A stretch of 5,768 nucleotides of DNA from assembly GCA_031259365.1 (NCBI GenBank), contig JAIRLP010000080.1:1-5768 (forward strand). The letters run 5' to 3'. Below are positions 1,758-5,768 of the stretch, in pieces (the stretch's first letter is position 1; every line of letters starts with the position of its first letter). The position numbers and the translations under genes were made by a program. The stretch is from Rickettsiales bacterium (GTDB lineage: Bacteria; Pseudomonadota; Alphaproteobacteria; Rs-D84). The notes under the pieces are model-generated. The model was given only the letters and a program-made list of their open reading frames with translations, did not search any database and was not told the origin of the DNA.

Positions 1758-3095
1758 TTACATATCCAAGTAATCGCGCAGATCATCGCCAAACAACGGC
1801 GTCATGTTCTGGCTTGGCATCCCGGCATCGGCGATAGAGATTATGCGCGGGGACATAAACACGACCAACTCGGCAAATGGGCTGATCAGTGTTTCAGGTT
1901 CTGTTACAAATGAATGTGTTGGAATACCAATAATCACATAATTGTCACCGGGTGAACTTGGGATCTTGAATGATGTCAATTCACCGGCATTTGTACGCAG
2001 AACAATTTTAGAATCAATTTTCTTGGTTCCTGCATAATCACCGTATTTACCAGTTGCGCCGATCGTCAAATCAGTTTCCAGTCTTTCTTCTTTGCCACAC
2101 TGACCGATATCAAAGCGTGATTGCCATCCGTTTGGAATCACGAATGTTCCTTGGGAAATCAAAACAACGTTACCCTGGGACCCCAAGAATTCTTGCAATG
2201 TTTTGGTATTGATTTCCGGACTGGTCACCAGCGCACGACCAACGACACCTGGGATGGACATTCTGACATTCTTATCACCAAATGCCGGCAACATATTCAT
2301 CCAAATGATTGGATTGTCTGTACGTGGATAGACGCGGTATACATCAATATCCCACGCAACCATATATTTCTTGGAACCAACATCTGCGACAATTCTGCCA
2401 ACTTCGCGTTCTGTTTGATAATTGCCTTCGAATGTCACAGTCTTGTCTTTCCAATCAACTAACAAGTTGCGCAGGTCTGCACCATGCATAGCATCCAACA
2501 ACGCCATAATGATATTTTCATCTTTTGGCATTTTCATCAACCATTTTGCACGATGCATCAAATGAATTTCTTTGGCATCATCTTCATATGAATAATAAGC
2601 GCGTCCCATCTTGGCGATCAATTCAACAGTATCAGCCAATGATCCAGATTGAATAGAACCCGTAATTTTTTCTGGCAGGTCTTCATCTTCGATCACACTG
2701 ATATTTGTACCGTCCAACAGTTTATCCAGTGTCTCGCGGACTGTCAGTTTTGTAAATTCATAATCATTTACATTAAACGAAGGCAGTGGATCACCAACAT
2801 CCAGACGTACAATTTCAATCTTTTCTTCTGGGATAACAGACAATACGTTTTGGTTATTCCAATCTACTTTACAGCGTTTTGGCAATTCAATAGAAAAACG
2901 GCGCGCTGTATCTGTGGTTAGCGCGGCTTTCTTTGGAAAGATTGGCACAGAATTTTCATCAATAACCAGATTGTTAATAACCTGCACCGTGTCATATTGT
3001 GTTTGGTTCTGCCGACCAAACTGTTGGGTGCACCCCAAGATTGCCGGCACAACCGCCAAACCGCATATTATTCTAATAAATTTTGAATTCTTCAT
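1758..3095 (-). CDS. Outer-membrane lipoprotein with secretin-like architecture (putative liposecretin); function unknown
   Basis: 445-aa ORF with ATG at 3095 and an AGGA/GGGG RBS in the 15-nt gap upstream. The lipoprotein signal peptide is MKNSKFIRIICGLAVVPAILG|C (lipobox ILGC, Cys22, +2 Thr). Residues about 113-180 (TKLTVRETLDKLLDGTNISVIEDEDLPEKITGSIQSGSLADTVELIAKMGRAYYSYEDDAKEIHL) read like an STN/N0 domain. Residues about 193-255 read like an N1-type domain ending in DIDVYRV. Residues about 249-420 follow the secretin-core pattern: LQEFLGSQGNVVLISQGTFVIPNGWQSRFDIGQ, then GDNYVIIGI, then AELVVFMSPRII, matching the canonical ...ELLvFitPrIv ending. That it is a real CDS is high confidence. 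The secretin assignment is moderate and rests on pattern reading only. Confidence 0.65.
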   Translation of the reverse strand: MKNSKFIRIICGLAVVPAILGCTQQFGRQNQTQYDTVQVINNLVIDENSVPIFPKKAALTTDTARRFSIELPKRCKVDWNNQNVLSVIPEEKIEIVRLDVGDPLPSFNVNDYEFTKLTVRETLDKLLDGTNISVIEDEDLPEKITGSIQSGSLADTVELIAKMGRAYYSYEDDAKEIHLMHRAKWLMKMPKDENIIMALLDAMHGADLRNLLVDWKDKTVTFEGNYQTEREVGRIVADVGSKKYMVAWDIDVYRVYPRTDNPIIWMNMLPAFGDKNVRMSIPGVVGRALVTSPEINTKTLQEFLGSQGNVVLISQGTFVIPNGWQSRFDIGQCGKEERLETDLTIGATGKYGDYAGTKKIDSKIVLRTNAGELTSFKIPSSPGDNYVIIGIPTHSFVTEPETLISPFAELVVFMSPRIISIADAGMPSQNMTPLFGDDLRDYLDM

Positions 3096-3110: not shown

Positions 3111-3434
3111 TTATATGTTCATGACTTTTTCAAATTCTTCCAAAGTCATTTCATGTATTGGTTTCTGCGTTGGCGTGGTTAGGGTTTGAACCTTTTGGTA
3201 TTGATCCCTAAATCTTTCTATCACGGCTGCGACTTCTGCGTTTATTGGCGTTTTGTCGCTTTGCATTTTCATTGCATAGTCTACTATAAATTCCAGCGTG
3301 TCCGCAGCAAAAAAACGTCCCACATAGTTTTCCATGGCAATTCCCCCCTTTTGCACACAAATAGCGGACATAATTGTCGTCATTTGGTTGTAAAAATTAG
3401 CCAGTCTAATAAAATTATCTACACTATGTGCCAT
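3111..3434 (-). CDS. Hypothetical small cytoplasmic protein (107 aa), first gene of the secretin-like/lol cluster
   Basis: The track ORF 3111..3488 begins at a TTG with no RBS. The in-frame ATG at 3434 is preceded by GAAAGGCGGGACCA (GAAAGG/GGCGGGA RBS) and lies downstream of a candidate TATAAT. Product: MAHSVDNFIRLANFYNQMTTIMSAICVQKGGIAMENYVGRFFAADTLEFIVDYAMKMQSDKTPINAEVAAVIERFRDQYQKVQTLTTPTQKPIHEMTLEEFEKVMNI. It has no signal peptide, no TM segment and no motif I recognise. The composition looks helical with an acidic C-terminus. Its stop is 15 nt before the next gene's ATG. Confidence 0.6.
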   Translation of the reverse strand: MAHSVDNFIRLANFYNQMTTIMSAICVQKGGIAMENYVGRFFAADTLEFIVDYAMKMQSDKTPINAEVAAVIERFRDQYQKVQTLTTPTQKPIHEMTLEEFEKVMNI

Positions 3435-3458: not shown

Positions 3459-3488
3459 ATTATAAAAACTATTGCCCCAGTAAAGCAA
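3459..3488 (-). promoter_or_regulatory. Candidate sigma70-type promoter for the small-protein/secretin-like/lolCD cluster
   Basis: Minus-strand reading gives TTGCTT (3488..3483), an 18-nt spacer, then a perfect TATAAT (3464..3459). The predicted TSS near 3452 leaves a leader of about 18 nt containing the RBS for ATG 3434. Sequence match only. Confidence 0.35.
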
Positions 3489-3500
3489 TTAAATTATAAT
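3472..3500 (+). promoter_or_regulatory. Candidate sigma70-type promoter for the small lipoprotein gene
   Basis: TTGCCC (3472..3477), a 17-nt spacer, then a perfect TATAAT (3495..3500). The predicted TSS near 3507-3508 would give ATG 3511 a very short leader and exclude ATG 3499. It overlaps the minus-strand promoter candidate. Sequence match only. Confidence 0.3.
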
Positions 3501-3510
3501 GGAAACCATA

Positions 3511-3897
3511 ATGATAGGAAAAGTCAGACTTTTATCTCTTTTGCTTATTTTGGCTGCTTGTTCATCCGTGAATACAGGCAGTATTGATGATGCAACTATT
3601 TTAAACTGGGAAAATGAAATGGTTACCACCGAACAGTTTGTTCGTGATCACAGAAGATGTTTGGGAATAACTCGCCCTGCCCATGCGCCAAGATCCAGGA
3701 TAGCCAAATTGATCTCTCCTAACCAAAGTGGCCAAATGCCAGATTGGGATGGATTATGGGTTACTTTCCAGTCAAACGAACACCAAGATGTTGGCCAACG
3801 CTCGTTAATGTCAATCCCCCCTAATTCCAGTTCTAAATCTGTTGGCGCATACCGTAAATGCATGTTCAGACGCGGATATTTGTTACGGGCTAGTTAA
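3511..3897 (+). CDS. Small lipoprotein (128 aa precursor), unknown function
   Basis: The track ORF starts at ATG 3499 (METIM...). ATG 3511 gives a textbook lipoprotein signal peptide, MIGKVRLLSLLLILAA|C (lipobox LAAC, Cys codon 3559..3561, +2 Ser), with GGAA 6 nt upstream. The mature part is polar and carries two further cysteines (HRRCLG and YRKCMFRRGY near the C-terminus). The antisense ORF 3648..3863 is a shadow. Confidence 0.75.
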   Translation: MIGKVRLLSLLLILAACSSVNTGSIDDATILNWENEMVTTEQFVRDHRRCLGITRPAHAPRSRIAKLISPNQSGQMPDWDGLWVTFQSNEHQDVGQRSLMSIPPNSSSKSVGAYRKCMFRRGYLLRAS

Positions 3898-4694: not shown

Positions 4695-5768
4695 ATGAAC
4701 CTGTTTGATTCATCTTTCTTATGTCTTGATATTGGAACATCGATTGTACGGGCGGTGGCTCATCGTGTTCGATCGGGGCGCATTACCAGATCTGCACTGT
4801 TTACCGTATCCAGTACCGATACCGTTTTCGCCATTAAATCTGCGGTTGATGAATTAGAAAAGCAAATCTGTTCCAGATTTGATTCAGCATATATCACTGG
4901 AAACTTTGGCAAGGCTGAATTTGAAATTGTCGCCAAAAGCACCACATGGTCCGGTGAACACAAAATCACAACATCAGATATCCGACATCAAATTTCGCAG
5001 ATAAAGCCAAATGAAGGCTTTTATCCGATGCATGTTATTCCGCTGCGATATGACACATCGTCTGCCCGCAATCTGTTAACACCAGTCGGTTATATTGATC
5101 GACAATTGGTTTCTGTGTTTGGGGCAGTCTTTTATGAAACGTCCCGATTGAATGAAATTTTTGCATTCTTGCGCCGCGCACATATCCAGGCCGAATTTCT
5201 GGAAGATCCATCATTTTTGTTAGATGCCATATTTCGTCAAAAAAAACAAACTGCCTTGTTTATTGATTTTGGTGCTGAATTTACCAGCCTGTCTATTTGG
5301 ACCAACAGGGGCCCTGTTTTCTTTGATAAAATAGAAATGGGTCAATCTGCTATTACATGCGCCATTGCTGATGAATTAAATATTCAAAAAACAGATGCTA
5401 TGCGCATTAAAAATTCTGTGGCGTCTGTATCTGCAAACGAAATGGATCGATTTACACCAGCTGACACCACATATGATTTTTCACGCGCAGATGTGAATGA
5501 AATTCTGCTGACAATCTTGCTGGACACGATTGAAGCCGCGACACAATCACTGGCTGGCGCCATTACAAAATACATACCAGCACAAATCTTTGTATCTGGC
5601 GGTGGATCTGGCATAGACGGAATTGACGAACTGTTGGAAAATACATTTAAAATCCCTGTCAAAAATCTGGGTGCGGACGCGACAGTGAATGCTTTGTCGG
5701 CATATATTTGGGCAGAACAGGCACCTCGTATCAAGGCCTATTTAAACAGACGAAACAGATGGCAAAAC
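4695..5768 (+). CDS. ftsA: Cell division protein FtsA (actin-like ATPase fold), divergent; 358 codons, 3' end lies beyond the right edge
   Basis: ATG 4695 is preceded by GGAG (4683..4686). I translated the frame by hand and found it open to 5768; it is absent from the track because no stop lies in the window. Phosphate-1 motif: FLCLDIGTSIVRAV. FtsA-like core: MHVIPLRYD...PVGY. Phosphate-2 position: LFIDFGAEFTSLSIW. Adenosine motif: IFVSGGGSGIDGIDELLENTFKIPV. Its position immediately after ftsQ supports FtsA rather than another actin-like protein. Confidence 0.8.
   Translation, partial: MNLFDSSFLCLDIGTSIVRAVAHRVRSGRITRSALFTVSSTDTVFAIKSAVDELEKQICSRFDSAYITGNFGKAEFEIVAKSTTWSGEHKITTSDIRHQISQIKPNEGFYPMHVIPLRYDTSSARNLLTPVGYIDRQLVSVFGAVFYETSRLNEIFAFLRRAHIQAEFLEDPSFLLDAIFRQKKQTALFIDFGAEFTSLSIWTNRGPVFFDKIEMGQSAITCAIADELNIQKTDAMRIKNSVASVSANEMDRFTPADTTYDFSRADVNEILLTILLDTIEAATQSLAGAITKYIPAQIFVSGGGSGIDGIDELLENTFKIPVKNLGADATVNALSAYIWAEQAPRIKAYLNRRNRWQN

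Follow-up and report, generated by a model that had tools for sequence, protein, structure and literature searches.

A secretin-family lipoprotein lacking both gates is encoded upstream of lolCE and lolD in some gut Alphaproteobacteria with reduced genomes

The window analyzed here is a 5,768-nt stretch of contig JAIRLP010000080.1, and all coordinates refer to positions within it in forward-strand numbering. Its minus strand contains a real open reading frame of 445 amino acids (1758–3095), designated secL, that family alignments, hhalign, AlphaFold, and Foldseek identify as the gene for a gate-less secretin-family lipoprotein. Located 15 nt upstream, between secL and the divergent region, is small125 (3111–3434, or to 3488; minus strand), the first gene of the operon. 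It encodes 107–125 amino acids, and BLASTP and a family HMM identify it as a reduced orthologue of up1, a protein found beside secL in related loci. The likely start of small125 is MAHSV at 3434; the longest open reading frame begins at a TTG codon at 3488. The list of neighbors in the original prediction did not include this gene. Beginning 18 nt downstream of secL is lolCE (483–1739; minus strand), which encodes a LolF-type permease that scores 434 bits against the TIGR02212 equivalog model (cutoff 362). After a further 17 nt, the 5′ part of the ABC ATPase gene lolD (1–465; minus strand), recognized from its translation, runs off the window; its orthologue in locus L001 carries Pfam ABC_tran. 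Across the divergent region, lipo132 (3499–3897; plus strand) encodes a small lipoprotein with two cysteines and is followed by ftsQ and ftsA. These genes, together with lolCE and lolD, are arranged as originally described. Rfam and tRNA scans of the whole window were empty.

The first 22 residues of secL (3030–3095; minus strand) form a signal peptide with a lipobox, AILG followed by C22, and the cysteine is invariant in an alignment of 45 orthologues, which bears out the clear lipoprotein signal noted initially. As judged from its sequence, the protein carries the acylated-cysteine signal of type IVb lipoprotein secretins and is predicted to be lipidated. AlphaFold and hhalign place a lipidated linker, an N0 domain, an N3 domain, and a secretin core in that order. 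The linker (residues 23–100; 2796–3029; minus strand) is the positional counterpart of the LG domain described for BfpB (PMC12531336). Residues 23–60 are predicted to be disordered (pLDDT <50); residues 44–100, which contain C75, are 88% conserved, with 33 of the 57 positions invariant in the close clade. The STN-like N0 domain (residues ~101–181; 2553–2795; minus strand) includes a sub-threshold Pfam STN match at residues 106–134 and is modeled with high confidence (pLDDT 84–95) in a β-α-β-β-α-β-β fold. The region first proposed as STN/N0-like (nt 2556–2759, or residues 113–180) lies within it. The following domain (residues ~182–257; 2325–2552; minus strand) was originally called N1-like; alignment by hhalign to the N3 domain of BfpB-like secretins, together with the secondary structure of the AlphaFold model, indicates that it instead corresponds to the ring-building N3 domain in BfpB terms (PMC12531336). 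N0 and N3 can both be aligned with their counterparts in true secretins and fold confidently. The shortened secretin core (residues ~258–422; 1830–2324; minus strand; pLDDT ~90) was delimited by mapping the elements of BfpB. The interval previously assigned to the core (nt 1836–2351, or residues 249–421) falls on this secretin-like region by both AlphaFold and hhalign, and all of the motifs quoted for it are present: LQEFLGSQGNVVLISQGTFVIPNGWQSRFDIGQ at residues 300–332, GDNYVIIGI at 383–391, and ELVVFMSPRII at 409–419. Within the core, the outer-barrel segments are largely kept, but only a reduced inner barrel remains and neither gate is present.

Curated HMMs miss secL, so its homology to secretins is visible only at the level of profile-profile and fold comparison. 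Pfam returned no Secretin (PF00263) match at E ≤ 1 and no Secretin_N match for secL, and the STN match, at 14.4 bits, fell below the cutoff of 28.4. Ten mid-distance members of the family likewise lacked PF00263 at E ≤ 1, whereas true relatives score 45–74 bits. A scan of NCBIfam at E ≤ 1, including the PilN (TIGR02520) and MshL models, produced no match to secL, and A2 relatives matched TIGR02519 and TIGR02520 only under the curated cutoffs. PHROGs gave no match, nor did phmmer and family-profile searches of PDB sequences. The HMM matches expected by the original prediction were thus not found. Profile-profile comparison gave a different result: hhalign aligned the secL family to true secretins with a probability of 100% (E = 2e-39) over 384 columns, covering query residues 5–413 including the core. 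A profile search with the family recovered true secretins, and the best PDB match of the relatives of secL was BfpB (4e-34). The AlphaFold model of the monomer, built from an alignment that included distant members, is confident (pLDDT 80.3). When this model was submitted to Foldseek, the 12 best PDB matches were all secretins (probability 0.95–1.0), and BfpB ranked first (E = 5e-10). The corresponding TM-scores are low (0.14–0.26), so the identity of the fold rests on probability, E-value, and sequence profiles. Together, the profile alignments and the predicted structure show secL to be a full-length homologue of type IVb pilus lipoprotein secretins. The lipidated-secretin homology proposed at the outset therefore holds, and the closest relatives are in the BfpB/TcpC/PilN-like type IVb class.

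In comparing secL with true secretins, we found a consistent difference in the segment that bears the gates. This segment spans 63–82 amino acids in all 28 members of the secL family and 121–139 amino acids in all 22 true secretin relatives, and the two ranges do not overlap. Mapping on BfpB revealed how much secL has lost: gate 1 is missing 19 of its 25 residues, gate 2 is gone almost entirely, and the inner strand that follows lacks 9 of 13 residues. The gate-1 deletion lies at C333-G334 (2094–2099; minus strand), where a 19-column gap stands opposite TYVSEIGTVLSQSSTSTTA of BfpB, a stretch that falls inside gate 1 (residues 406–430). C333, which flanks the gap, is invariant throughout the family, as is C75, and both cysteines are family-specific. 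The C-terminal outer-barrel segment is also shorter than that of BfpB by ~20 residues, which makes penetration of the membrane by secL uncertain. The original description of a minimal secretin is correct as to ancestry; since neither gate hairpin remains and one strand of the inner barrel is also deleted, a gated secretin-type pore is not to be assumed.

The secL family is confined to Alphaproteobacteria of the gut whose genomes are reduced, namely Ca. Enterousia, order Rs-D84, and relatives, and more than 1,200 proteins in the database derive from an intact open reading frame. Across the close clade, secL is ~75% identical, compared with ~55% for FtsQ and FtsA, and the outer-barrel segments together with linker residues 44–100 are 88–92% conserved. 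Gene neighborhoods were examined in 20-kb loci; 82 of these represent the close clade only, and distant contexts were taken from contigs that encode distant members. The sole neighbor conserved family-wide is up1, which precedes secL in every context. The small125 protein shares 40% identity with L092_up339 (E = 2e-9 by BLASTP), and the up1 HMM matches small125 in essentially all Enterousia loci (E = 1e-10 to 1e-12). A profile search with up1 retrieved 861 unnamed proteins from gut Alphaproteobacteria MAGs that offered no clue to function. Pfam and NCBIfam scans of up1, up2, dn, and TrbL-like proteins found nothing beyond HTH_3. The small lipoprotein gene lipo132 is present in all 82 close-clade loci (69–87% identity) and absent from the distant ones, so its membership in a secL module is uncertain; its product matched nothing in Pfam, NCBIfam, PHROGs, or the PDB.

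The adjacency of secL to lol genes is not a one-off rearrangement, since secL-lolCE-lolD is kept in 82 of 82 close-clade loci as well as in two deep branches whose secL proteins are 43% and 34% identical to that of the window. In all three lol-linked branches LolCE scores above the equivalog cutoff, and the hairpin equivalent to the LolCE Hook is retained in length. Gaps of 15–18 nt separate small125, secL, and lolCE in the window, and genes overlap in locus L093. The arrangement is, however, limited to part of the family. In other branches, a conserved bitopic membrane protein designated dn follows secL and no lol genes are adjacent; its profile found no match in the PDB, and neither dn nor lipo132 matched TcpQ in Pfam. 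All lol-linked members of the secL family carry a lipobox, whereas at least four of the eight dn-linked members are not lipoproteins. In four independent contexts of the dn branch, an array of three to five paralogous TrbL/VirB6-like proteins is encoded immediately upstream of the module, with a firm match to PF04610 in L097. Genes of this type were absent from the window, the 82 close-clade loci, and loci L083, L090, and L093.

The absence of pilus and secretion genes beside secL, claimed from the window alone, extends to its relatives. Neither the window nor the 20-kb loci of relatives contain an ATPase, pilin, or platform gene of this kind, and T2SS, T3SS, T4P, Tad, and phage-assembly genes were absent from the window, the 82 close loci, and 10 further distinct contexts. 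Pfam matches to T2SSE, T2SSF, and pilins were likewise lacking near secL in the 11 distinct contexts, so its orphan status was upheld in each. In contrast, the closest true secretin (P0206) adjoins T2SSE and T2SSF genes. A survey of Rs-D84 genomes reported type IV pili only for another lineage and described genomes of <1 Mb without them (PMC12306168). The loss of the gates and the lack of nearby pilus genes indicate that secL probably serves an undescribed envelope system.

We infer that LolCE-LolD releases lipidated secL from the inner membrane for anchoring in the outer membrane, a course that would parallel the self-piloting route of lipidated secretins such as BfpB. The protein would then multimerize into a ring through N0, N3, and the outer-barrel segments. 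Because the gates are missing, such a ring would be either permanently occupied by a partner or a fixed ungated conduit, rather than a gated pilus port. secL may form the outer-membrane portion of an envelope module specific to this lineage, with up1 (small125) as its constant partner and either dn or LolCE-LolD as its variable inner-membrane neighbor. In the branch to which the window belongs, co-transcription of secL with lolCE and lolD would most simply reflect the dependence of an abundant, essential-looking secL on the Lol pathway; direct mechanical coupling of secL to LolCE is possible. Taken as a whole, the best explanation is that secL descends vertically, under strong constraint, from a type IVb pilus-class lipoprotein secretin, has lost its gates, forms a ring, and belongs to an up1-based envelope module, and we judge this account to have an even chance of being correct. 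Counting against it are the missing lol adjacency in the dn branch, the ability of compact, syntenic genomes to hold gene order without a functional link, and the failure of curated secretin HMMs to detect secL. In addition, up1 and up2 lack signal peptides, which makes them a poor fit to an outer-membrane machine.

Two other explanations assign the ring a transport role of its own. It is tempting to speculate that secL acts as a Lol-coupled conduit, in which the ring, bound to the periplasmic domains of LolCE, acts as an outer-membrane acceptor or exit for lipoproteins, replacing LolB and perhaps bypassing LolA, or supporting surface export powered by LolD. This reading, which we consider rather unlikely, is favored by the tight or overlapping secL-lolCE-lolD operon in three deep branches (100%, 43%, and 34% identity), by equivalog-level LolCE in each of them, and by the inner-membrane protein with a periplasmic domain that occupies the same slot in the dn branch, which is consistent with swappable partners. 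Moreover, some lipoproteins, PulA among them, can reach the cell surface through T2SS secretins. However, secL matches no LolA, LolB, or other Lol family in Pfam, NCBIfam, or phmmer searches; the Hook hairpin, which recruits LolA, has kept its length and thus provides no sign of a LolA bypass; the dn branch has no adjacent lol genes and several non-lipoprotein members; and a wide multimeric ring would be an unusual way to insert single lipoproteins. In its broadest form, the gate-less ring would dock on LolCE-LolD, or on another inner-membrane partner in sister lineages, as a trans-envelope conduit for lipoproteins into or across the outer membrane and so provide reduced-genome Alphaproteobacteria with a LolB-independent, possibly LolA-independent, route for sorting or surface display. 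We regard that extension as distinctly unlikely. The loss of both gates, together with the retention and high conservation of the outer-barrel segments, could also point to a large, secretin-derived open pore for the import of nucleotides, peptides, lipids, or DNA, with partner cells or the gut lumen as the source. The secretins PilQ and HofQ serve DNA uptake in other bacteria, and the hosts of secL, which lack biosynthetic pathways and standard uptake systems, have been proposed to depend on partners (PMC12306168). Left unplugged, a channel with a width of tens of angstroms would nevertheless abolish the outer-membrane barrier, a hazard amid gut bile salts; the shortened outer barrel may not penetrate the membrane; and no competence or uptake genes adjoin secL. 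For these reasons an open pore appears unlikely.

The remaining explanations would place secL in a familiar setting. Its clear secretin ancestry by hhalign and Foldseek is what would be expected of an ordinary pilus, T2SS, or Tad secretin with partner genes elsewhere in the genome; secretin genes are sometimes unlinked from their own systems, and the evidence here comes from loci rather than complete genomes. Gate loss in 28 of 28 members renders this improbable, as do the 11 contexts devoid of pilus genes, the clustering of the closest true secretin with its own ATPase, the different conserved partner set around secL (up1, up2, HTH_3, and dn), and the description of genomes of <1 Mb without type IV pili (PMC12306168). 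The TrbL/VirB6-like arrays of the dn branch raise the idea of a divergent type IV secretion-like apparatus with these proteins at its center and secL as its outer-membrane ring. No VirB4, VirB9, VirB10, VirB11, or VirD4 match was found nearby, however, and the arrays are missing from the window, from the 82 close-clade loci, and from L083, L090, and L093. Type IV secretion systems are, to our knowledge, not known to use secretins, and we find the idea highly improbable. Finally, the large internal deletions relative to secretins and the weak fold matches to phage pIV might suggest a decaying relic or the remnant of an inovirus pIV-type prophage with no present function. Such an origin is extremely unlikely and is effectively ruled out by conservation (an intact reading frame in >1,200 proteins, with 75% identity where FtsA has 55%), by fixed chromosomal synteny, and by the lack of a PHROG match and of phage genes nearby.

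The preferred explanation, a gate-less secretin derivative in an up1-based module, has several implications. In the usual view, a secretin is an outer-membrane port that has gates and always works for the assembly motor of a pilus, pseudopilus, needle, or phage. The secL family breaks both rules, having lost the gates and joined a different, wholly unannotated gene module. secL ranks with the best-conserved envelope proteins in an entire order of gut bacteria whose genomes of <1 Mb keep little that is dispensable, and it is therefore a candidate for a core role in the construction or use of the outer membrane by these partner-dependent organisms. We know of no LolB in Alphaproteobacteria, and the repeated secL-lolCE-lolD operon bears on how these LolB-less organisms complete lipoprotein delivery. 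A search of the literature found no relevant report on secretin-Lol coupling or gate-less secretins.

Among known systems, the type IVb secretins BfpB, TcpC, and R64 PilN resemble secL in having a lipobox, the order linker, N0, N3, and core, and neither N1/N2 nor an S domain (PMC12531336, PMC12114550). By analogy with BfpB, the Lol pathway should be sufficient to bring secL to the outer membrane, with no need for a pilotin. Unlike these proteins, secL lacks gate 1, gate 2, one inner strand, and ~20 C-terminal outer-barrel residues; it has no detected BfpG/TcpQ-type partner and no pilus operon, is matched by neither TIGR02520 nor PF00263, and carries the family-specific invariant residues C75 and C333. 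GspD, PilQ, InvG, and pIV share N0, N3, and outer-barrel ancestry with secL, which keeps the motif L..FL...G.V..iS.G...vPNGW..RFDiG that opens the secretin domain as well as the motif ELVVF.SPRII that closes it. Those proteins form gated double barrels for an ATPase-driven pilus, pseudopilus, needle, or phage, whereas secL has no gates and no such motor nearby. With respect to the Lol pathway, secL is co-transcribed with equivalog-level lolCE and with lolD but has no LolA/LolB-like fold or sequence, and we know of no secretin-family protein that acts as a Lol component. HxcQ, a self-piloting lipidated secretin of the P. aeruginosa T2SS that is targeted to the outer membrane by Lol rather than by a pilotin, is like secL a lipidated secretin-type protein; unlike secL, it is full-length, gated, and encoded inside a T2SS operon.

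The 445-aa secretin-family lipoprotein is encoded by an intact ORF on the minus strand (secL; 1758–3095), followed on that strand by lolCE (483–1739; TIGR02212 equivalog, 434 bits; cutoff 362) and lolD, which starts at 465. The spacers are 18 nt (secL-lolCE) and 17 nt (lolCE-lolD). An ORF of 107–125 aa (small125; 3111–3434/3488) lies 15 nt upstream of secL. Across a short divergent region are the small lipoprotein gene lipo132 (3499–3897, plus strand) and, beyond it, ftsQ and ftsA, the latter running off the window at 5768; no RNA genes were found in the window. The original prediction named the lol, lipoprotein and fts neighbors correctly and overlooked small125; its coordinates and motifs were all found in the secL sequence. 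In a close relative (L001, 6669–8441, minus strand), ftsA is called as 590 aa with Pfam matches to FtsA and ribulose-phosphate 3-epimerase; the two genes are either fused or were merged in gene calling.

The lipoprotein signal predicted at the N-terminus (MKNSKFIRIICGLAVVPAILG followed by C) is borne out by orthologues, in 45 of which the Cys is invariant. Recognition by existing secretin models was not: Pfam gave no Secretin or Secretin_N match, and STN scored 14.4 bits, below its cutoff of 28.4, while NCBIfam, searched for the TIGRFAM PilN and MshL models, returned nothing for secL, as did PHROGs and PDB sequence searches. A 5.8-billion-protein database yielded 1,209 matches, the best 120 of them 74–89% identical; all are labelled “hypothetical” and derive from gut or termite Alphaproteobacteria MAGs. 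The family profile retrieved only 147 clusters from 1.84 billion representatives, with full-length members of 370–470 aa. Longer proteins make up the weaker profile matches (E 1e-12 to 1e-4); Pfam identifies them as true secretins (45–74 bits), one of them fused to a TcpQ domain. PF00263 detects none of 10 mid-distance family members, as with the query. Profile-profile comparison of 28 family members with 22 true secretins gave a probability of 100% (E 2e-39) over 384 columns, spanning query residues 5–413. These 22 secretins are lipoproteins too (consensus L-x-G-C); among solved structures, the one most closely related to them is BfpB, which serves as secretin for the type IVb bundle-forming pilus of EPEC (E 4e-34). 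AlphaFold modeling needed distant members in the alignment, a shallow alignment giving no usable C-terminal half; the resulting model (pLDDT 80.3, pTM 0.69) matched the fold that had been predicted, with secretins occupying all of the best 12 Foldseek matches in the PDB and BfpB the first place (E 5e-10). TM-scores were low, as expected when a monomer model is compared with multimer protomers. Together, the profile-profile and structural matches establish that secretin ancestry spans the entire secL protein. Its domain order (lipidated linker, N0, N3, secretin core) is that of BfpB (PMC12531336), by which the domain originally read as N1-like is N3.

In BfpB, the outer barrel comprises residues 307–392 and 495–545, the inner barrel residues 393–405, 431–460, and 480–492, gate 1 residues 406–430, and gate 2 residues 461–479 (PMC12114550). 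Using the BfpB sequence as hhalign template with these published boundaries, we found that the secL core is ~60 residues short, the missing residues falling in three blocks. The first removes 19 of 25 gate-1 residues immediately after the invariant C333-G334; the second, after F376, removes nearly all of gate 2 together with 9 of 13 residues in the inner-barrel strand that follows; the third, after I391 and F396, shortens the C-terminal outer-barrel segment by ~20 residues. From a conserved Gly to a conserved Glu, an interval that includes both gates, 28 of 28 family members span 63–82 residues, whereas 22 of 22 secretin relatives span 121–139, with no overlap between the ranges. Ahead of this interval, the outer-barrel segment keeps almost its full length (66 residues, compared with 74 in true secretins). 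On alignment evidence, secL is thus a gate-less secretin derivative and not the “minimal secretin” first proposed. Two Cys do not vary across the family: C75 lies in the N-terminal linker, and C333 marks the gate-1 scar; their pairing in a disulfide is possible.

Divergent lipo132 and the series small125, secL, lolCE, lolD form one block in 82 of 82 close-clade loci (contig ends truncate two of these, so that lolD is seen in 80); some loci have ftsQ and ftsA relocated. Pfam annotation of distant neighborhoods revealed two arrangements. The lol branch (L083 and L093, whose secL proteins are 43% and 34% identical to the query) contains an HTH_3 regulator, a ~260-aa protein, up1 (the gene preceding secL family-wide), secL, lolCE, and lolD; LolCE exceeds the equivalog cutoff in both, and the module genes overlap in L093. 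The dn branch (L085/86, L087/88, L089, L090, L091, L096, L097) reads (HTH_3, up2) up1, secL, dn, where up2 is a further upstream module gene and dn a conserved bitopic membrane protein of 170–245 aa whose periplasmic domain has 2 Cys. Adjacency to lol genes holds for the close clade, L083, and L093, with dn standing instead in the dn branch. The L092 locus, which is truncated, also has up1 followed by secL.

In four independent contexts, tandem arrays of 3–5 large TrbL/VirB6-like paralogues lie directly upstream of the HTH_3-up2-up1-secL-dn module (L085, 1198–7069; L087, 2–5796; L096, 2520–8296; L097, 1129–8408, with a firm PF04610 match); they resemble the multiplied VirB6 genes of Rickettsiales. 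A ~330-aa protein with two HTH_3 domains heads the module (L085, 7162–8148; L087, 5893–6876; L083, 6689–7687; L093, 7245–8246) and is its best-conserved gene (85% identity between L085 and L087, against 58% for the secL protein); the 20-kb Enterousia loci do not contain it. In the L083 lineage, two adjoining secreted proteins of 442 and 392 aa (3604–6123) are encoded a few kb upstream of the module; they are Cys- or Lys-rich, have coiled-coil character, and lack family assignment.

The small125 protein is 40% identical to the up1 protein of L092 (L092_up339; E 2e-9), and the up1 HMM matches small125 in essentially all Enterousia loci. Sequence comparison identifies small125 as a reduced orthologue of the up1 central domain, which makes the up1-secL pair the invariant core of the module. 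All up1 relatives are unnamed proteins from gut Alphaproteobacteria MAGs, and up1, up2, dn, and lipo132 have no Pfam, NCBIfam, or PDB match. The up1 proteins are acidic, with no signal peptide (L083, 7737–8528 and 8544–9926; L085, 8740–9987; L092, 1303–2322). Their ~110-aa N-terminal domain (GxNW...W...FGxxG) is duplicated in a neighboring L083 gene of 263 aa, and several of the proteins terminate in GPAPDGFE; Enterousia keep only the ~100-aa central domain, as small125. The lipo132 protein has two conserved Cys, is 69–87% conserved, and is always divergent from the operon in the 82 close-clade loci; it is absent from distant loci and has no PHROGs match. It may be a partner of the secL protein specific to this clade, analogous to BfpG/TcpQ, or may be unrelated.

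The close loci derive from Ca. Enterousia and other gut Alphaproteobacteria MAGs, one of them a circular 958-kb chromosome. Records titled “uncultured Muribaculaceae bacterium” (L011, OZ246409.1) and “Bacteroides fragilis” (L046, CAVGNU010000015.1) carry this alphaproteobacterial locus (secL 75–78% identical, lolCE/lolD syntenic); these bins are probably mislabelled or contaminated.

As the most likely mechanism, we propose that LolCE-LolD would extract the secL protein after its lipidation. Once anchored in the outer membrane, it would form a multimeric ring by way of N0, N3, and the outer barrel that it retains. Because it lacks gates, this ring would be either permanently occupied or a fixed conduit, and it may serve as the outer-membrane part of a lineage-specific module to which up1 also belongs. 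A Lol-coupled conduit or acceptor for lipoproteins is a less likely, rival reading. The secL-lol adjacency is real and old, extending over three deep branches, and is not universal. All lol-linked members carry a lipobox, whereas of eight dn-linked members at least four have ordinary signal peptides, a pattern that fits dependence of the lipidated form on LolCE-LolD for export, by analogy with BfpB-type “self-piloting” secretins. The secL protein shows no features of LolA or LolB. LolC recruits LolA through its Hook hairpin, residues 167–179 (PMC10865981); the Hook is generally poorly conserved in sequence, and window LolCE has a same-length counterpart, so we see no sign of LolA bypass.

Another rival, an open uptake pore, would likewise make use of a gate-less ring. 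Enterousia, of order Rs-D84, have genomes of < 1 Mb without flagella, amino-acid, nucleotide, and lipid biosynthesis, or standard transporters, and have been proposed to depend on partners (PMC12306168). In the same survey, the only lineage credited with type IV pili is a different one (PMC12306168), which speaks against an ordinary secretin whose partner genes lie elsewhere. The original prediction saw no ATPase, pilin, or platform gene in the window, and T2SSE, T2SSF, pilin, and phage genes are absent from every secL context examined; in contrast, in the nearest true secretin relative (P0206) the secretin gene is followed by a 164-aa gene, T2SSE, and T2SSF, with a second T2SSE further on. 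A T4SS-like hybrid would draw on the TrbL/VirB6-like proteins that often precede the dn-branch module, near which no other T4SS genes were found. A relic or a prophage gene is very unlikely. Over the 82 close-clade loci its product is ~75% identical (LolCE ~82%, FtsQ and FtsA ~55%), and linker 44–100, N3, and the two outer-barrel segments are 84–92% conserved; this conservation rules out a relic. Neither a gate-less secretin nor, consistent with the original prediction, a secretin-Lol operon turned up in searches of the literature. Compared with known secretins, the secL protein belongs to the superfamily by descent and departs from it in both defining features, the gate and the association with a system.
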